Origin: a virus | Lineage: Duplodnaviria; Heunggongvirae; Uroviricota; Caudoviricetes | IMG/VR virus record: IMGVR_UViG_2579778894_000022 | Strand: one strand, 5' to 3' | DNA length: 32,120 nucleotides | Part shown: in pieces, positions 4,341-27,695 of the stretch | How the letters are laid out: every line of letters starts with the position of its first letter | How positions within the stretch are numbered: position 1 is the first letter of the stretch | Translations under genes and position numbers: made by a program | The notes under the pieces: generated by a model | Told to the model about the DNA's origin: nothing | The model's database searches: none | The model's input: only the letters and a program-made list of their open reading frames with translations

Positions 4341-5820
4341 TAATCACCTCAATACTGACACCACCGGGAACAAACAACGGGTTGCTGATACCGTTCCTGC
4401 GGGCCAGCCGTTGCCAGTTCCGGCTGTTTCCTGTGTAACGGTACAGAGCCACCATTGCAGGCATCGTCTCCGGCAGGCGGTGCGTTTCACTGCCTGCCAG
4501 TTGCAGCCCGCGTTTTTCCAGGTCGGCAACAACCAGCAGACGCAGTTGCGTAAGCTGAACGCTGTCTGTCGAAAAGCCCTGCTCAGATGCCGTCAGAATG
4601 ACGGTATCCAGCGCTGCCCCCAGCATGGCGGCTGTTTTTCCGATATCGGACACACTTTCAAATACCGGGGGCGTGGCTGTACCACTGTCTGAAAAGGATA
4701 CCTGTGAAAAGCCGCCGTCCGGGGTTATGGCAGTTAACTGTAACTGTCCCTGTGTGACGGTAGCGGATGTGCTGCTGGCCCCGCTGGCTGTGCCGGTTGT
4801 GGTGGACGGGGCATCCAGTACAGGTGCACGGGCGGCATTATCCATCCGGCGACTGAAATCCAGTGCCGCAGTCAGTGCCTGGCTTGCTGCCTCCGCCCGG
4901 TATGTCTGTGCTGCTGCCAGCATGACGTAGTTCAGTGTGGCAATATTTTTTTCTGCAACCGGACTGTTGTACGAGGTTGTGATTGTCCCCTGTCTGCCTG
5001 CGGTGGCGGCATGGCGACGTTCGAATCGCTGCGCCAGACGGTTCCATGTGGAAAATGCTGTCCGGGTATCGCATAACGATGAAACGCCGGACAGCGCCCC
5101 CATCAGCGAGGAGGCCAGCATGGCAGGCTGGTTAATCAGGCTGGTCACAGAGCCTTTCATCGCAGAAAGCGATCCCATCAGACCGCTGACAGTCTGCGTA
5201 ACCCCCAGATTGTCCACCGCATCACTGATATCATCGATGACACCGGTTACAGCTTCCATCACGGCGGTTGCCGCCGCAGTGCCATCTTTTACGGTCTGCC
5301 AGACAGAGGACAGCGTATCTCCCAGAGAACCGGTTACAGCAACGGCCTGTGCCGGTACGGCTGCACTGGTGTCTGTCTCTGAGTCCGGGGCAGTATCCTG
5401 CAACGACGGATAAACGGTAACGGTGAACGCGTAATAATTCAGTTCATCCGCTTTAGTGCGGCATTCCCATGAATCCACCATGACGTCCACAGTGCCGAAA
5501 TCAGGATGTACCAGCTCACCGCTACCCGGAGCATCAAGAGCATCCATCAGCGCACCCGCTTCATCTCTGGCTGTTTCTGCGTTGCTGTTCAGAATGCAGG
5601 CGCTGAATGTACGGGAGCGAAGCTTTTTCCCCAGGTCATTGACGCCGCCGGTATCACGTAACGGGTACTCGCGTTTAACCAGGCGACGTCCGCCAGCCTG
5701 TTTTTGCTCCTCGATGACGAGAAACGGCACGTTACGAAACGTGCCTTTGCCGGTTGTTTTCTTACCACCGCTGATTTTATCCCGGACAGCATTAACGGCA
5801 TTTAAAGCATCTTCAAACAT
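4333..5820 (-). CDS. DNA circularization protein family (Mu gene 43 position)
   Basis: 495 aa; N-terminus [19 protein letters not shown]...; Ala/Thr/Ser-rich central region; directly follows the tape measure gene. Confidence 0.75.
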
Positions 5821-11972: not shown

Positions 11973-12890
11973 TTACAGGTAGTCAGCGACAACCAGTTGC
12001 AGCTTGCCCTTCATCTCGTTGGAGACGGTGGTATTGCCATCCGCGAACAGTTCACGGTTAAGCAGTTGCTCTGCGGCTTTTTCCAGCCCGACCGGTACAA
12101 CGATATGCGTCGGCTTCAGGCCCAGCTTCTTACCGCCATCACCTTCAAAAGATCGCATCAGTTGCCAGCCCTTCCAGAGGTTATCCAGCGTCAGATCGCC
12201 TTTTACCGCGACAGCCATCTGCCAGAAGCCGTAACCGGCAGCACGGCGGGCGCTGGCACCAAACAGGAACTCGTTATCCATAAAAACGTGGTCGTCATCG
12301 ATACGGGTACGTGCGACCAGTTCCGGTTTGCGGCGCTCCTGGAAAATCAGCGGTTTGACTGCGCGGGAGCAGTCCAGCAGATAGAATGGCAGACCGCTGA
12401 AGCTGTCCTGCTCAACGATGTTGGAGGTATTAACCGCGCTGCCCGTGCCGTCCACATTCGGATATACCGGATGCTCCTTGTCGAAGAAGTTCTGACCGTC
12501 ATAGCAGGGCTGGGTAAAGCCATCTTTCAGAAGTTTAAAAATCAGCTCATCCGGCTGAACTGCCGCAGAACGGCCCATCTCCTGAAAAATCGGCGCATAA
12601 ATACCCAGATTGTCATCCTCGAAGTCATCACGGGAAATACCCACGGTGCCTTCAAACGTTTTATTGGCGATGGAGTAGCCATGCGCTTCCATTTGCTGAA
12701 TGGTTCGCTTACCCACCCATTCTTTCAGGGTCGGGAATTTACCCAGCCAGCCATAGGTATTACTGCGGGTGGAAGAGTTCACCACCATTGCAATTTTGCT
12801 GTACTGCGACGGGGCGTCTTCAAGACCGCCCTGAAAATCCTTACGCCAGGAGGTCATCAGGGCTTTAATGGATGCCGGGGTGACAATCAT
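11973..12890 (-). CDS. T: Major capsid (head) protein
   Basis: 305 aa, downstream of the protease/scaffold gene, followed by a stem-loop; matches Mu T in size and position. Confidence 0.85.
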   Translation of the reverse strand: MIVTPASIKALMTSWRKDFQGGLEDAPSQYSKIAMVVNSSTRSNTYGWLGKFPTLKEWVGKRTIQQMEAHGYSIANKTFEGTVGISRDDFEDDNLGIYAPIFQEMGRSAAVQPDELIFKLLKDGFTQPCYDGQNFFDKEHPVYPNVDGTGSAVNTSNIVEQDSFSGLPFYLLDCSRAVKPLIFQERRKPELVARTRIDDDHVFMDNEFLFGASARRAAGYGFWQMAVAVKGDLTLDNLWKGWQLMRSFEGDGGKKLGLKPTHIVVPVGLEKAAEQLLNRELFADGNTTVSNEMKGKLQLVVADYL

Positions 12891-13972
12891 TTTTCTTGTT
12901 CCTGTTTCATTTTCAGATACTCAGCCTCTGTAATGCCGAGCGCCTTCACTGCTGCCTGTTCATCAGCAGACAGCACCGCCACAGCCGTTTTTTCCTGCGA
13001 CGGGATTTTCGCTGTGGTGGTCTGCATGGCAGATAACGCAGCGATGGGCTGTTTTTTCTCAAGCTGTGCCGACAGTGCCGCCACGCCAATCTGACCGCCA
13101 AGCTGTTCCAGATAGGCACGTTCGCTTTTGAAAATGCGGCCTTCCTGTTCCGCCTTGTCCAGAACGGCGCTCAGGCTGGCTGTGGCGCTTTGTGCAGTCG
13201 CCTGTGCCAGTTCATCACGCAGGGCGTTGTAGCTTTCCACCGGGACGTATTTCGTCAGGTCAACGGCGGCTTTCTGTGCCTTTTCCAGTTCGGCGGATAA
13301 CGACGCCACTTTTCCGGCATCTGTTTCGAGCGCATCAAGCGCACTCAGGGCCGCGCTGGCCTGTTCATCGGTGATGTCTGCATTTTCGGGGACCGTCACC
13401 CCAAGACGCGCAAGCAGCTTGCGCAGCGTTTCATTCATGGGTTTGTTCTCCTGTTGAAGGATGTCGGGAAGGTCTGCCGCCAGTGCGGTCAGCTTTTTCA
13501 TGCCGGTGGCACCGGGGTCATTGGTCAGCGCAGCAAGGCGGATTTGCAGCACCGCACCGGTGGCGGTGTCATACGGAAAAACCGCAGAGAGATAACCAAA
13601 TTCACCGTCATCGATGCGCTGCTGTGCCGCCGCCGTCCAGCGTGGGTGGATAAATAATCCTTCACCTTCACGCCACTGCATTTCATCGGCGTTAAACCAG
13701 CCAGCCGCGACGAGTTGTTCCGGGGGTAATCCTTTGTCCTTACGTAGCTGGTTATGCTCGTAATCAATCAGCACGTCCTGGTTGAGCGCGCGAACGCCTT
13801 CAACCAGACGCCCGGCAATCTCACCGTCGATGAACCACCCCTGACCACCTGTCACATCAAACGGACGACCATCACGGGCACTGAAATGACCGGCAGGCAA
13901 TAGCTGGCACCAGCCGTCATCGTCAATGGACAGCGCACTCAATGCGGCAATGCCAATCGCGTGTTTTTTCAT
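12887..13972 (-). CDS. I: Head maturation protease / scaffold protein (the C-terminal coiled-coil part corresponds to scaffold Z in Mu)
   Basis: 361 aa; globular N-terminal domain then an Ala/Leu/Glu/Gln-rich coiled-coil C-terminal half (ELEKAQKAAVDL...AEYLKMKQEQEK). Confidence 0.8.
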   Translation of the reverse strand: MKKHAIGIAALSALSIDDDGWCQLLPAGHFSARDGRPFDVTGGQGWFIDGEIAGRLVEGVRALNQDVLIDYEHNQLRKDKGLPPEQLVAAGWFNADEMQWREGEGLFIHPRWTAAAQQRIDDGEFGYLSAVFPYDTATGAVLQIRLAALTNDPGATGMKKLTALAADLPDILQQENKPMNETLRKLLARLGVTVPENADITDEQASAALSALDALETDAGKVASLSAELEKAQKAAVDLTKYVPVESYNALRDELAQATAQSATASLSAVLDKAEQEGRIFKSERAYLEQLGGQIGVAALSAQLEKKQPIAALSAMQTTTAKIPSQEKTAVAVLSADEQAAVKALGITEAEYLKMKQEQEK

Positions 13973-14168
13973 GTCCTGCTGCTCATCATGGTTTGTGAGC
14001 AGTCAGTTTGCGGGAGGTGCGGGAAAATCTGGGGTTATGCTATTTGAGTAATGGAGAAAGAAAGTGGAAGGAAGATAAAACGGGATTCATACACCGTTAA
14101 ATACCGGTTTAAAAATCCCGTGGCGCGTTTTAAAAAATCTGTGCGGCTGATTTTATGCCTGATTCTGT
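13973..14168 (-). promoter_or_regulatory. G-I intergenic region: candidate C-dependent late promoter and candidate central strong gyrase site
   Basis: 196 bp non-coding gap, the only large one in the virion module. It contains a tandem GCGGGAGGTGCGGGA element sharing a 10-mer with the lys upstream region, plus a stem-loop just after the G stop. The promoter and gyrase-site roles are assigned from what I recall of Mu biology. Confidence 0.5.
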
Positions 14169-14639
14169 TTATTGCCTCAGAGCGACGCTGACGCGTTTTC
14201 TGATGGCATCAAAAATTTCCTGTTCCCCGGTCTTATCCAGCCCCATATAAGGACGCGCAGGAACGCCTGCCGGGCGGGGTGCCATATCGGGTGTACCGCC
14301 CCACTGATGAATGGCAGCATAAATTTTTGGCGAACCAATCAGGGCATAATCCTGTCCATAATCGGTGGTAATGCTGCGTGCCAGATCGCCATGCAGGGTA
14401 AGGATACTGCCCGGAACAAAACCATGATCCTGACGCCATGCCAGCCACGAATCGCTCCACGCTTCCCAGCCTTTCCCTGTATCCGGGTCTGCCTGCCGTT
14501 CAAATGCCTGTTCCGTGGATGACAGCAGCGCCGCAGCCATCACACGGGGAATGGCGCGGTCACGTGTAACGGTTCCCAGTTCATCCAGTGCAAGCTGAAT
14601 ACGTCGCACATCCACGGCAACGTTCATATCAAGACTCAC
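14169..14639 (-). CDS. G: Virion morphogenesis protein
   Basis: 156 aa ORF between F and I. Confidence 0.75.
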   Translation of the reverse strand: MSLDMNVAVDVRRIQLALDELGTVTRDRAIPRVMAAALLSSTEQAFERQADPDTGKGWEAWSDSWLAWRQDHGFVPGSILTLHGDLARSITTDYGQDYALIGSPKIYAAIHQWGGTPDMAPRPAGVPARPYMGLDKTGEQEIFDAIRKRVSVALRQ

Positions 14640-17474: not shown

Positions 17475-19129
17475 TACCAGCCCCCTCGTTCAAACTGGTG
17501 ATAATCATCAAAATCATCGTTATCAACATCATCACCACGGTGGCGTGGTGGCAGCGCCTGTATGCTGTCCTCGTCGATAACAAAACCATTCATATAAGAC
17601 GCCCTGACAGCCATACAGAGCGCCACGGCAAAGTCGCCATGTCGTCGGCCTTTACCGCCTTCATCTTTTGTGCGCCCCTTATCAATCTGCGGAATACCTT
17701 TGTCCACCTTGATGTGGAGCAGGTCATCAAGTGTGGTCTGGTGCCGGGCAATCGTGATGTTCTGCGCTTCAAACTCGCCTTTCAGTTTTGGCATCCACTC
17801 CTGATACCAGGATGCGGTCAGATTCACACAGTCGATCATCTCCGGGCCATAAATCAGACGGGCGGCTTCTGCCAGATAACCGCCGTTACCGGTGGCATCA
17901 AATGCAGCGCCGGTAAAACGGGGCAAACGGGACAGAATGAATAAAAGGATTTGTCGCTGCTGGTCATAGGTCACATTACGCAGCTCCACGCGGAAACATT
18001 CGCGTTTGCGTAAGTCAGGAGTGATGGCAAGCGGCACAAACACCGACAGGTCGCCACGGCGTGCAAAGTCTTCGCCCAGTACGTGTTTATTGAGCGGCGA
18101 CAGCGCATCGAGCAACGGGAGCAGCTCCTGTTCACACCAGTCCTGAACGATGCCGTGGCGCATTTGTGGTGTCAGCGATTCAAAATCGTCCGGGGCTTCA
18201 AAACGCAGAATCGGGATATCCCGCGCTGGCGTCATGGCGGCTTCAATCAGCACGCGTGACAGATAAGCGCCCCCGGATTTTTTAGGAATGCAGCCGTATT
18301 CCTCGTCGGCACTCTCTTTATTCGGCGCATTCCGGTACAGGCCATCACGCCAGGCTTTTTCCGCTTCCGGCGACCACGGCTGATTCGTGACGTAACAGAT
18401 ACGTCGGTACAACCCGTCAGCGATGGCATCATCCAGCGTGATGCGGTGAACGCTGTAATCCTTGCGCCCCTCGCGCGCATCCTGAATGTACTGGTTAAAC
18501 AGGTTATCGACGCCGTTATGTGTCGATATGATCCGCACGTTGGCACCCCACATGGTGAGAGCAAAAGCCGCTTTCAGGAGTTCGTCCAGGGCTTCATGAA
18601 ATGCCGCCTCATCAATCACCACGTCCCCCTGCAAACCACGCAGGTTAGACGGACGGCTTGACAGCGCCTGCACCTTAAATCCGCTGTTAGGGAAACGGAT
18701 CATATAAGTGAGGATTTCTTCTTTTTTGTCGCTGTCCCAGAAGGTCTGCTCCCAGACATCAGCCTTTGCCAGCTGGTTAAAGGCGCGGGCAAACAGGGCA
18801 CAGGCGGCGATATATTCCAGCGCCATTTCCTGACGGGAACCCACATAAAAGACGTTGCGACCGCCACGGCGGCGCGGCTTTGCTGCCGTCATGACATTGC
18901 GGCCCGCTTCGGCCCATGTCAGACCGGTACGACGGGATTTTTCAGCGATGCAAATCTGGCTTTCATCCTCAAACCAGCGGCGCTGATAACCCAGGAAAAC
19001 CGGTTCATTGCGGGGCTGTGCTTCACCGATATCGGTCACGATATTCACGCCGAGCAGTTCGGCTTCCTCACGCAGGTTGATTTTGCGGGGCGCATGAAGG
19101 GCTTTAAGGTTGTTTTCTCTGGTGTTCAT
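17474..19129 (-). CDS. Terminase large subunit (Mu gene 28 position)
   Basis: 551 aa from the ATG at 19129 (MNTRENNLKALHAP...), which has an upstream GAGGG and sits 8 nt after the preceding stop. Deviant Walker A-like AEKSRRTGLT. The ORF track's 615 aa version is an upstream extension overlapping the previous gene. Confidence 0.85.
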   Translation of the reverse strand: MNTRENNLKALHAPRKINLREEAELLGVNIVTDIGEAQPRNEPVFLGYQRRWFEDESQICIAEKSRRTGLTWAEAGRNVMTAAKPRRRGGRNVFYVGSRQEMALEYIAACALFARAFNQLAKADVWEQTFWDSDKKEEILTYMIRFPNSGFKVQALSSRPSNLRGLQGDVVIDEAAFHEALDELLKAAFALTMWGANVRIISTHNGVDNLFNQYIQDAREGRKDYSVHRITLDDAIADGLYRRICYVTNQPWSPEAEKAWRDGLYRNAPNKESADEEYGCIPKKSGGAYLSRVLIEAAMTPARDIPILRFEAPDDFESLTPQMRHGIVQDWCEQELLPLLDALSPLNKHVLGEDFARRGDLSVFVPLAITPDLRKRECFRVELRNVTYDQQRQILLFILSRLPRFTGAAFDATGNGGYLAEAARLIYGPEMIDCVNLTASWYQEWMPKLKGEFEAQNITIARHQTTLDDLLHIKVDKGIPQIDKGRTKDEGGKGRRHGDFAVALCMAVRASYMNGFVIDEDSIQALPPRHRGDDVDNDDFDDYHQFERGGW

Positions 19130-21643: not shown

Positions 21644-22066
21644 TTATTTCAGGCTTTCAGGTGAGAACAGATCAGGCTGATGACGTCGTGTATGCAGCTT
21701 TCTCTGGCGGGCAATAATCTGGTAGATCTGCGGCTGGGACAGGCGATACTGGCGACGCAGTTCTTCCATGTTACGACCATTGAACTGGCAGTAAAGCAAA
21801 TCGTCGCGTAACGCGGTCAGGATCGTATCGCCGCAGGGGATGTAAAACTGCCGCCCGCCCAGAAAACAGGACAGGGCAACGGCCTGTTTACGGGCAAGCT
21901 CACGGGGATTGCTGACGTTCTGGCGTTTCAGTTCGTTTTCCAGAACATCAATCAGATCAACCACCGAACGGGGCCAGCGTGACTCCAGTTCCGGGGCCGG
22001 GATGTTATCAATATGTCCGATTAACTGGCGAATTGCCGGATCGTGTTCAAATAAATCATGCTGCAT
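21644..22066 (-). CDS. C: Late gene transcription activator C (Mor/C family)
   Basis: 140 aa; clear paralogy to Mor visible in the sequence (YIPCGDTILTALRDDLLYCQFNGRNMEELRRQYRLSQPQIYQIIA versus Mor YIPRGQVLDSLIRDLRIWNDFNGRNVHELAIRHGVTFNTVYKAIR); HTH at the C-terminus. Confidence 0.9.
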   Translation of the reverse strand: MQHDLFEHDPAIRQLIGHIDNIPAPELESRWPRSVVDLIDVLENELKRQNVSNPRELARKQAVALSCFLGGRQFYIPCGDTILTALRDDLLYCQFNGRNMEELRRQYRLSQPQIYQIIARQRKLHTRRHQPDLFSPESLK

Positions 22067-22106: not shown

Positions 22107-22337
22107 CTACTGAATTTTCTGTACATGGTATTTTTCTCTGTAACGCCGGCAATGGTGGATAATTTCTGGCATATCAACGGACTGCCAGCCTTTCATGTAA
22201 TAACTTCCGTGGGTGCCATCGTGCCCTGTGTAATCCATTGGCTTTGGTGGTGGGCCTCCGGCCTCCCGATGTAATACCTCCTGTCGTAAACGTTCACGCC
22301 TGCCGAACTGAAAGGACGCATCCCACCCTTTACCCAT
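22107..22337 (-). CDS. Small middle-operon protein, function unknown
   Basis: 76 aa from the ATG at 22337 (GGGAGG 6 nt upstream), overlapping the preceding stop by 8 nt; His/Arg-rich. Confidence 0.45.
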   Translation of the reverse strand: MGKGWDASFQFGRRERLRQEVLHREAGGPPPKPMDYTGHDGTHGSYYMKGWQSVDMPEIIHHCRRYREKYHVQKIQ

Positions 22338-22890
22338 GCAGAACCTCCCGACAGGCGCTGGCGAGCAGATCCAGACGGTTAAACCAGCCATTCAGATATT
22401 TCCCCTGCGAGGCACTGGATTTGATAATCCCTGCGTAATAGCGGGAACGACGCAGGAAGCACTGCAACAGCAGCCAGTCAGTATCGGCACGCAGAACGGC
22501 TGCGCGTGTGTTTTTACCGACGATGCCATCATCATCAACACCTGCTGCCGCCTGGAGGATCTGAATCGCGCGTTTAACACCGTGCTGAACGGCAGCATCA
22601 AAAACGAATAAGGAAACGCCATCAGGCCATTCGTTACACTTTGCCGCCAGCCAGTAATCACGCCAGTAGATCTGCGCCGCCTGCTCGCGGGTTAAATCCT
22701 TAATGCGGGTATCAGGTTTTCCGTCACCGTTAACATCGGTTTTGCCATCAATAACGCCGTCGCGACGGTCAGAAATACCGTATTTCGTTTCGCCGCCACG
22801 GTCGGCAGGATCATTAACATAGCCACCTTCAACATCAGGGCGTATAACGAAATTCAGCGAATGAAGGAATGCAGGGGAAAACTCAGGCAT
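22330..22890 (-). CDS. GH108-family muramidase-like protein with C-terminal peptidoglycan-binding domain (middle operon)
   Basis: N-terminal EGGYVNDPADRGGETKYGI, the signature of glycoside hydrolase family 108 as I recall it, and C-terminal DGIVGKNT...RYYAGI...GW.NR consistent with PG_binding_3. Strong RBS AGGAGGG. First gene after the mor terminator. Confidence 0.75.
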   Translation of the reverse strand: MPEFSPAFLHSLNFVIRPDVEGGYVNDPADRGGETKYGISDRRDGVIDGKTDVNGDGKPDTRIKDLTREQAAQIYWRDYWLAAKCNEWPDGVSLFVFDAAVQHGVKRAIQILQAAAGVDDDGIVGKNTRAAVLRADTDWLLLQCFLRRSRYYAGIIKSSASQGKYLNGWFNRLDLLASACREVLHG

Positions 22891-24184: not shown

Positions 24185-24487
24185 TCAGTTCGTTAGACCC
24201 AGATGCTGACGGATCTCAAAAGCCTCAAACACATGAGCGTCAGTAACAATATCCTGGTCTGATAACCCCAGCCTGCGGCGGATGTACTCCTCGCGGGCTG
24301 TTTCATTTTGCAGTGCCACTACTGTTTCCAGACGATTCATTTCGCGGTTGATAATGTCACGGACTTCTCTGGCGGTGAGATTATGCTTAATACCATATTC
24401 AACGATAGCGCGAACACGTTCCAGCATCCCTTTTTCAGCCATGACGTTATCAATATTAAGGGGAGTAAATTTATCTTCATTGTTCAT
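24185..24487 (-). CDS. Semi-essential early region protein, function unknown
   Basis: 100 aa; ATG overlaps the upstream stop (ATGA). Confidence 0.6.
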   Translation of the reverse strand: MNNEDKFTPLNIDNVMAEKGMLERVRAIVEYGIKHNLTAREVRDIINREMNRLETVVALQNETAREEYIRRRLGLSDQDIVTDAHVFEAFEIRQHLGLTN

Positions 24488-24792
24488 TTTGCGGCCCTCA
24501 GAATAAATTCAGGATAAAATTTCAGACTCATTTGCCGTAACACATCCAGTGCAGCAACGGCTGCTGATTTATCGTTGCCATCAGCAATAGCGCGGAGATT
24601 TTCAATAATCCAGTGAGGACTCAGTGACTCAGCAATAATGCCAAACCGGTACGCCATGACCTCATCAATAGCTTTTTCATGAGACGGCTCATATACAAAA
24701 TTCACAAAGTCATGCACTTCTTTTTTCGGCAAACCACCGGCAATCAGCAGGGCGGCAAGCTCTTCTGATTTTGAAAATACACCATTATTCAT
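24484..24792 (-). CDS. Semi-essential early region protein, function unknown
   Basis: 102 aa from the ATG at 24792, 1 nt after the upstream stop with a GGTGA RBS; the ORF track's GTG at 24807 lacks an RBS. Confidence 0.55.
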   Translation of the reverse strand: MNNGVFSKSEELAALLIAGGLPKKEVHDFVNFVYEPSHEKAIDEVMAYRFGIIAESLSPHWIIENLRAIADGNDKSAAVAALDVLRQMSLKFYPEFILRAAK

Positions 24793-24793
24793 G

Positions 24794-24976
24794 TCACTCA
24801 CCTTCACAATTCATGCACGCCGTGTCATCGCCCATATCGCAGTGGTTACATTTCTGCCCGCCACAATGAGGGCACTCTTTCAGATATTCAGGGGATTCAT
24901 TACCGCAGGTCGGGCATTCCTGTTTCACCGTGGTAAATTTCCCCAGCCACGAATACGATGTTTCATTGTTTTCCAT
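24794..24976 (-). CDS. Small zinc-ribbon protein with four CxxC motifs
   Basis: 60 aa containing CPTC, CPHC, CNHC, CMNC; GGAGG 7 nt upstream of the ATG. Confidence 0.6.
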   Translation of the reverse strand: MENNETSYSWLGKFTTVKQECPTCGNESPEYLKECPHCGGQKCNHCDMGDDTACMNCEGE

Positions 24977-27385: not shown

Positions 27386-27405
27386 TGTCAGCGTTCCTTT
27401 GCGAA

Positions 27406-27675
27406 TTAATGTTTAACCGCATTCACCGGATGTGGTACTAAATCACATTCAGCTTCCATACCCACTTTCTTCATAGTGGTCAGCATCTCATCTTTGGCCT
27501 TTTTAATAATTTCAGGAGCCATAGTCAGGACGATATTTGCCAGTAAATCATGAGGCCCGGTATTTTCCGTTGGCGAGATATCTGCAAGACATGCTTTTGC
27601 ATCCAGAACTTCTCTGCGCCCATTGCAACTGTCACTACTTTCCAGCCATGTAAACTCAAAGATAACCTTTGCCAT
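27406..27675 (-). CDS. Semi-essential early region protein, function unknown
   Basis: 89 aa ORF with short intergenic spacers on both sides. Confidence 0.55.
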   Translation of the reverse strand: MAKVIFEFTWLESSDSCNGRREVLDAKACLADISPTENTGPHDLLANIVLTMAPEIIKKAKDEMLTTMKKVGMEAECDLVPHPVNAVKH

Positions 27676-27695
27676 TTTTCTTCTCCTTATTGATT

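Follow-up and report, generated by a model that had tools for sequence, protein, structure and literature searches.

The G-I intergenic gap of a Mu-family phage very probably carries the strong gyrase site, a predicted terminator hairpin and the late promoter P_I

A non-coding gap of 196 bp separates genes G and I in the 32,120-nucleotide stretch of viral DNA that was analysed here (the window). The gap spans positions 13973..14168, between the start codon of I (13970-13972) and the stop codon of G (14169-14171), both on the minus strand. From comparison of its sequence with phage Mu, we are highly confident that the gap corresponds to the region between G and I in a transposable phage of the Mu family, and that it would hold three cis-acting elements within 196 bp, namely the strong gyrase site (SGS), an RNA hairpin and the late promoter of gene I (P_I). 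The feature is already known and has been studied intensively, and there is no novelty in the G-I gap of this phage. The genes and elements are as follows.

12887..13972, minus strand: gene I, an ORF for the head maturation protease, 97.8% identical to Mu I (Mu_32/Mu_33 in AF083977); the scaffold protein Z is encoded from an internal start, and I comes first in the P_I transcript
13979..14002, minus strand: I-leader dyad CTGCTCA-N10-TGAGCAG, with 7-bp arms at 13996-14002 and 13979-13985
13982..13984: ribosome-binding site of I (18044..18046 in AF083977)
13985..14051, minus strand: late promoter P_I, corresponding to the AF083977 promoter 17977..18043 (the record label cites PMID 2522923)
14005-14010, minus strand: -10 hexamer of P_I, CAAACT
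14010-14024, minus strand: C-rich spacer of P_I, TCCCGCACCTCCCGC, at about -26 to -12
14034-14049, minus strand: C box, with the right half ATAAC conserved
14051..14079, minus strand: pyrimidine-rich tract (C/T content of 90% on the coding strand) that separates the hairpin from P_I
14075..14121 including the U-run (stem 14080-14121), minus strand: two-tier RNA hairpin ACGGGAUUU...GAAUCCCGU, with the inner stem ACCG/CGGU, followed by UUUUAU
14084..14148, no strand assigned: proximal right arm of the SGS, with phased T-tract/A-tract motifs, 100% identical to Mu; the motifs are TTTTTTAAAAC (14127-14137), ATTTTTAAACC (14106-14116), ATTTAACG (14095-14102) and TATGAAT (14085-14091)
14149..14152, no strand assigned: gyrase cleavage core with a 4-bp stagger, 17 bp beyond the stop codon of G; it reads AATC in the top strand of Mu (Mu 17876-17879)
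14148|14149 and 14152|14153: scissile bonds, the first annotated and the second deduced from the 4-bp stagger
14153..14216, no strand assigned: left arm of the SGS, made up of 16 bp of the gap and about 48 bp of the 3' end of G; its extent is taken from a published 133-bp fragment
14169..14639, minus strand: gene G, an ORF of 156 aa for a virion/capsid morphogenesis protein, 99.4% identical to Mu G (Mu_31 in AF083977)

The source phage is a Muvirus, and the window lies in reverse orientation relative to Mu and is collinear with it, also through the late genes. All genes near the gap are on the minus strand, with F upstream of G and T downstream of I. Near the gap, window coordinates were converted to Mu coordinates by subtraction from 32028. 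The left edge of the window is near the G-segment boundary. Its right edge (32120) falls on Mu position 339, where the repressor gene c ends, which agrees with the estimate of the earlier note on this DNA that about 340 bp of the left end is missing there. The gyrase site lies 17,970 bp away from the right edge of the window, which puts it 18,308 bp (about 18.3 kb) from the left end of a genome of the Mu type, and the identical sequence of SfMu is found at 18,299 of 37,146 bp (49.3%). The position at the genome centre, which had been proposed from the window coordinates, was thus borne out.

The same 196-bp gap occupies 17860..18055 of the Mu record AF083977, where it is the largest intergenic gap of the entire genome, followed by those of c-ner (169 bp), gp54-gemA (105 bp), gam-gp11 (98 bp) and C-lys (94 bp). 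In the late region of Mu, the second-largest gap is that between T and gp35 (66 bp), and late genes have a median spacing of -4 bp, that is, a 4-bp overlap. The observation that the G-I gap is atypical among tightly packed late genes was therefore correct, down to its exact coordinates. The GC content of the gap was 43.9%, compared to 52.9% for the window.

A 751-bp segment around the gap (13700-14450) was 100% identical to SfMu, 99.1% identical to Mu, and 98.5-99.1% identical to D108, several Yersinia Muviruses and E. coli phages. The source phage is a mosaic Muvirus, nearest to SfMu at the G-I locus and nearest to the Yersinia phages vB_YpM_5/6 overall. Within the gap, 2 of the 196 positions differed from Mu (14067 and 14051), both outside the cleavage core and the proximal right arm, and the alignment with Mu, D108, Mu_3F6 and two Yersinia phages contained no indels. 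Since there were no indels and only two differences from Mu, the features of Mu could be transferred to the window base for base.

The 'gyrase cut site' annotated at 17879^17880 in both AF083977 and NC_000929 corresponds to the window bond 14148|14149, which lies 20 bp beyond the stop codon of G. A run of 101 bp that starts at this stop codon and covers the cleavage core and the right arm was identical to Mu AF083977. The alignment with the mapped Mu SGS, which had been proposed as a check, placed the 133-bp assay fragment (PMC6379681, Table S2) at window 14084..14216 with 131/133 matches. One of the mismatches is at 14147, two bases from the cut, and is probably the allele of the plasmid amplified by Sutormin et al., which we infer to be linked to nuB103, the variant used by most laboratories (PMC10052514). 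The Topo-Seq consensus is palindromic about four central bases, and when it was superimposed on the Mu SGS fragment the stagger fell at 14149-14152. This register indicates that the annotated bond is one of the two scissile bonds. The earlier note had placed the strong gyrase site of Mu in the G-I intergenic region. This was right for the cut site, which is inside the gap, and was not right for confinement of the whole site to the gap, since the left arm extends about 48 bp into G.

In the right arm, the T|A junctions are 19, 40, 52 and 62 bp from the cleavage dyad, and by inspection the spacing is close to integral helical turns. A periodogram of AT content at 10-11 bp in the right arm was not significant, as 26% of equal-length windows scored as high, and 7% did so with a shifted test window. 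A crude correlation with the GC/AT pattern of the published 133-bp consensus, which is not the real matrix, placed the site at rank 34 among 63,976 positions (z ~3.3, top 0.05%). The function of this site as a gyrase site in the source phage is suggested by its sequence identity to the characterised Mu site.

The primary studies of the Mu SGS are reportedly those of Pato in 1990, Oram & Pato in 2004 and Oram in 2006. According to later publications, Mu replication is held up for about 100 minutes when the SGS is deleted, SGS-less prophages are blocked at the synapsis of the Mu ends, and a central position of the site is optimal (PMC10052514). The site needs its right arm and can do without its left arm, and the dependence on the right arm is seen with purified gyrase alone (PMC10052514, PMC13284261). 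The cleavage position was recovered in vivo by Topo-Seq, whose motif gives the SGS the top score in the Mu genome (PMC6379681). Cryo-EM on the Mu SGS showed the right arm wrapping one GyrA C-terminal domain, with the AT repeats toward the protein and a T-segment presented (PMC11626157). Moreover, the prophage forms a separate domain with its ends close to each other, which is organised by the SGS and supercoiling (PMC3820752) and also requires IHF, Fis and HU.

By analogy with Mu, host DNA gyrase would bind the gap and cleave at 14149-14152. The right arm (about 14084-14148), with its T-tract/A-tract junctions at about every helical turn, would wrap the GyrA C-terminal domain so that a T-segment is presented. 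The outcome would be unusually processive supercoiling from the prophage centre. A plectonemic loop would then be extruded, through which the Mu ends, about 37 kb apart, could meet for transpososome assembly and replicative transposition.

Mu-like loci were collected by a search with the G protein and came from IMG/VR, Erwinia, Kluyvera, Edwardsiella, Apirhabdus, Citrobacter, Photorhabdus, Xenorhabdus and one Enterobacteriaceae genome. The O157:H7 Sp18-type prophage locus came from a separate search in distant mode, and a megablast search of the distant-type locus against E. coli genomes gave no matches. The identity of G among the relatives ranged from 40 to 85%. The G-I gap was kept in 11 of 12 Mu-like prophages at 163-208 bp. 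The gap of Apirhabdus was larger, up to 298 bp depending on the choice of start codon, and that of Edwardsiella contained an inserted ORF of 117 aa on the opposite strand.

The first 122 bp from the G stop codon were then aligned for the window and 12 representatives. The invariant and near-invariant columns all fell within one 37-bp block (window 14097-14133) with the consensus TTTTAAACGC-N8-GATTTTT-N-AACGGGTTTT-N-AA, and the invariant columns were situated in the first three right-arm motifs (TTTTTTAAAAC, ATTTTTAAACC and ATTTAACG). The block consists of three TTT[A/G]AA motifs that are 20-21 and 11 bp apart, and 12 and 11 bp apart in the O157 locus. No invariant column was found near the cleavage core in this alignment of the window and 12 prophages, and the sequence outside the motifs could not be aligned in other Mu-like prophages. 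As judged from this alignment, the three phased TTT[A/G]AA motifs are apparently held by selection in the Mu-like prophages of Enterobacterales, and the cleavage core has apparently drifted. The pattern shows an old, family-wide constraint on the right arm. Fixed right-arm motifs together with a drifted core agree with the published view that the right arm, and not the cut site, makes the site strong. This conservation is one modest addition of the comparison, and it could be a simple signature for predicting SGS-type sites.

The TTT[A/G]AA motifs might also be read as specific binding sites of a protein other than gyrase, for instance a nucleoid protein or a factor from the phage, which would act instead of or besides gyrase bending signals. 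Such a reading would account for motif sequence, beyond mere AT content, being kept where the flanking G is only 40% identical, and it is in line with the need of the Mu domain for IHF, Fis and HU in addition to the SGS (PMC3820752). We nevertheless consider it very unlikely. The cryo-EM structure places the right arm on the GyrA C-terminal domain with the AT repeats toward the protein (PMC11626157), and purified gyrase displays the dependence on the right arm without any other factor (PMC10052514, PMC13284261). Furthermore, the variation from A to G that is tolerated in the motif (TTTAAA or TTTGAA) fits a flexibility signal.

All the elements that the earlier note had listed in the gap were found: the tandem GCGGGAGGTGCGGGA at 14010-14024, which is the spacer of P_I, an AT-rich stretch, and the dyad CGGGATT...AATCCCG at 14080-14121, which is followed by TTTTAT on the coding strand. 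The dyad had been placed just after the G stop. Its presence and the following TTTTA were confirmed, and its location was corrected, as it starts 48 nt downstream of the stop, with the cleavage site in between. This dyad is the hairpin of the gap and lies inside the right arm of the SGS. Since the hairpin encloses the right-arm motifs 2-4, one DNA stretch would have both roles.

The hairpin folded at -19.8 kcal/mol (z = -3.3), and 0 of 200 shuffled sequences were as stable. The sequence after it is UUUUAUCUU, a tail with only 4 consecutive U. The TransTermHP terminator 17908..17953 of AF083977 corresponds to window 14075..14120. A simple promoter/terminator scan of the region called no terminator, and the hairpin was missed because the loop limit of the scan was 8 nt and its apical part is large. 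A hairpin with a U-run recurred in several relatives and was weak or absent in others. The hairpin is most likely the predicted intrinsic terminator of the lys-to-G late transcript, which starts at Plys and ends with G. Similar CT-rich tracts were found in relatives at the place of the pyrimidine-rich tract, which may serve as the tail of the terminator and/or as the distal right arm.

With a predicted terminator and a promoter in the gap, it could be supposed that the gap is only a boundary of transcription units, and that the AT-rich repeats are a by-product of terminator or UP-like sequence, with no role of gyrase here. The hairpin, the U-run and the promoter do fill more than half of the gap, and the periodicity test of the right arm was not significant. 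However, the cleavage core and the right arm match the experimentally mapped SGS of Mu at every base, the bases that are invariant in distant relatives belong to the phased TTT[A/G]AA motifs and not to the hairpin stems, and C-lys, the other late-operon boundary of Mu with a terminator and a promoter, takes only 94 bp. A gap without a gyrase site is thus very improbable, and we retain the reading of an SGS that shares its right arm with a predicted terminator.

The claim that a late promoter precedes I was upheld by the AF083977 promoter feature, which falls on 13985..14051, and by the published 92-mer of the I promoter (PMC4461284), which matched the window with one difference. The 92-mer was designed with 20 nt past the start site, from which, together with the position of the -10, we infer +1 at about 13997/13998. 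The spacer carries a 10-bp match with Plys, TCCCGCACCT, as noted by Swapna et al. (PMC4461284). The binding site of the activator C is an imperfect dyad of 16 bp with its centre at -43.5 (PMC2582627). The four 67-bp features of the Mu late promoters aligned in register, with the box cCATAAcCCC at positions 12-21 and the -10 at 42-47, and the -10 hexamers in this register were TAGACT in Plys, CAAACT in P_I, TATCCT in P_P and AAGATA in Pmom.

On the minus strand, the box CCATAAYCCC occurred only at 4721, 14031 and 21606, which are the positions of P_P, P_I and Plys. Its total number in the window was 5, compared to 3.6 expected, which is not above chance, and only the coincidence on the minus strand is informative. 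A sigma-70 promoter with a -35 was not found in the simple scan of the region, and this result was expected since P_I is activator-dependent. In addition, the window contains a C gene (21644..22066) that is 98.6% identical to Mu C, and a related box and -10 were present before I in all relatives. By analogy with Mu, P_I, which has a -10 without a -35, would fire only once the Mu C protein binds the box ending in ATAAC, and the transcript of the head genes I-T would start at P_I about 26 nt before the start codon of I.

The leader between P_I and I contains a second dyad, whose 5' arm spans the start of P_I transcription and whose 3' arm holds the annotated ribosome-binding site. The leader hairpin folded at -14.4 kcal/mol with z = -5.1 as a single sequence. 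RNAalifold on the MAFFT alignment of the I leaders gave no consensus structure. Separately, it was observed that five relatives have equally stable leader hairpins of different sequence at the same position (z -2.6 to -5.9).

The geometry of the sequence and the single-sequence folds raise the idea of a fold-back device that would limit the translation of I to the transcripts started at P_I; we regard this as doubtful and put it forward tentatively. In read-through transcripts of the late operon upstream, both arms would be present and the ribosome-binding site of I would be buried. Transcripts from P_I would begin inside the 5' arm and stay open, so that I (protease/scaffold) would be made only from its own C-dependent promoter.

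As a further observation on this leader, the segment of about 27 nt with the dyad was absent in the group of O157 Sp18-type, Citrobacter, Edwardsiella, Photorhabdus and Xenorhabdus prophages. In this sister group only 6-7 nt lie between the -10 and the start codon of I, and the I mRNA is therefore predicted to be leaderless. If the fold-back idea is true, the leaderless mRNA would lead to the same promoter-specific translation by another route.

Two candidate ORFs are annotated in the gap in GenBank records of related phages.

14035..14163, minus strand: D108 '31.5' ORF, 42 codons
14051..14191, plus strand: Mu_3F6 ORF, 46 aa with an ATG start

That the gap encodes a small protein, as these two records imply, is highly improbable, even though the ORF on the plus strand has an ATG and 46 aa and an antisense ORF of 46 aa is also present in some distant relatives. 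The annotated start of '31.5' is ATC, and the first canonical start leaves just 19 codons. The ORFs are unannotated in the curated records of Mu and SfMu, and PGAP annotated nothing at any of the 40 E. coli matches listed, out of 41 genomes. No ORF on either strand was conserved across 17 related gaps, whose lengths differ by non-multiples of 3, and the antisense peptide 'RFK' is a mere translation of the conserved DNA motif TTTAAACG. Moreover, both candidates overlap the mapped gyrase site and the hairpin. A small ORF was rejected on the ATC start of '31.5', the lack of a conserved frame in the 17 gaps and the absence from the Mu and SfMu annotation; the short real ORF that the earlier note had named as evidence against its proposal was not found, since no frame is conserved across relatives and the candidates are unsupported.

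A structured non-coding RNA, which the two stable hairpins at 14080-14121 and 13979-14002 might suggest, is just as improbable, since the Rfam search returned no family even at E <= 1, one hairpin has the anatomy of a terminator and the other straddles a transcription start, and the leader alignment gave no RNAalifold consensus.

The Mu SGS is a classic DNA element that recruits a host topoisomerase, by which a mobile genome of 37 kb becomes its own supercoiled loop and its ends pair, and it is a standard substrate in the biophysics and cryo-EM of gyrase. The intact SGS in the source phage merely confirms a typical Muvirus.

Among the known systems, P_I of Mu was reportedly characterised by Margolin, Rao & Howe in 1989 and is one of four C-dependent promoters (Plys, P_I, P_P and Pmom). 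The window shares with it the 67-bp segment, the ATAAC half, CAAACT and the TCCCGCACCT match with Plys, and the C gene is present. It differs by a single substitution (G to T at window 14051) that precedes the C box and has no visible functional relevance.

SGS-like sites of Mu-like prophages, e.g. that of E. coli O157:H7 Sakai Sp18, were reportedly the subject of Oram & Pato in 2004. They have in common with the present locus a gap of 163-208 bp, phased motifs of the TTT[A/G]AA type beyond the stop codon of G and a C-type promoter in front of I, whereas the motifs of the O157-type locus are 12 and 11 bp apart, without the 21-bp step. Partial replacement of the Mu SGS was achieved only with the Sakai site (PMC10052514).

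The pSC101 par site, the pBR322 site and the REP/BIME elements are likewise preferred for gyrase binding and cleavage and are flanked by periodic GC/AT patterns (PMC6379681, PMC13284261), but they are of unrelated sequence and without the extended right-arm signals. None of the tested sites from outside the Mu family was able to replace the SGS in Mu replication (PMC10052514). Compared with the SGS of Mu itself, the gap differs by the substitutions at window 14067 in the CT tract and 14051 at the upstream edge of P_I, and it shares the locus between G and I, the central position and the identical 101 bp.

[quoted passage not shown] The window carries the wild-type base, and the G of the assay fragment is probably the nuB103 up-mutation, brought in from the plasmid. 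Locus L049 (a proteobacterial MAG) contained two GATTTTTAGG motifs, 21 bp apart, at 2020-2070 downstream of its G homologue, which is very distant (36% identity, partial match). This pair is reminiscent of the first two motifs of the SGS right arm.

Three further features of the G-I gap and the start of I were noted:
14051-14079, - strand: 29-nt tract between the predicted terminator hairpin and P_I, the late promoter of I; 90% pyrimidine on the coding strand
13979-14002, - strand: dyad CTGCTCA-N10-TGAGCAG with 7-bp arms, in the I leader
13969-13989, - strand: upstream ORF of six codons (MMSSRT), ATGATGAGCAGCAGGACATGA

The pyrimidine tract could be the tail of the terminator, the distal part of the SGS right arm, or both, and comparable CT-rich tracts were found at the equivalent position in relatives. 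The 5' arm of the leader dyad covers the inferred start of P_I (~13997), and the annotated ribosome-binding site falls in its 3' arm. When folded as a single sequence, the dyad gave -14.4 kcal/mol with a z of -5.1, and hairpins unlike it in sequence were present at the same position in five relatives (L025, L032, L033, L035, and L038). Folding back in this way, the dyad may have an inhibitory effect on transcripts that read through from upstream. The stop codon of the mini-ORF overlaps the start codon of I (ATGA). Since similar mini-ORFs were present in L033 and L038 but absent from L032 and L035, it is probably fortuitous.

In seven more distant Mu-like prophages (L026, L028, L029, L034, L040, L044, and L050), the ATG of I lies 6-7 nt downstream of a -10-like hexamer, as in the O157 example TATGCT-GCCGGA-ATG, and no Shine-Dalgarno sequence was found just upstream of this ATG. 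This arrangement predicts a leaderless I mRNA in these prophages.

The G-I gap of L034 (Edwardsiella anguillarum, 1975-2650) was enlarged to 676 bp and held an ORF of 117 aa on the opposite strand. Inserted as it is after the TTTGAA motifs and ahead of the I promoter, this ORF looks like a moron. Moreover, in L051, an Sp18-type Mu-like prophage of E. coli HH35, the F and G homologues have a PGAP-annotated 'tRNA-OTHER' between them, at 171-250 and on the opposite strand.

Two additional ORFs were located in the window:
22330-22890, - strand: 186-aa ORF between mor and gp18
24484-24807, - strand: extra 107-aa ORF between gp13 and gp14

The 186-aa product (YWRDYW..., GVDDDGIVGKNT) is, as we take it by eye, a putative GH108-type muramidase with a peptidoglycan-binding domain. 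In Mu, the mor-gp18 interval has just 77 bp. Furthermore, no match to Mu gene 7 was detectable in the window (27386-27686). The semi-essential early region of the window is mosaic relative to that of Mu.
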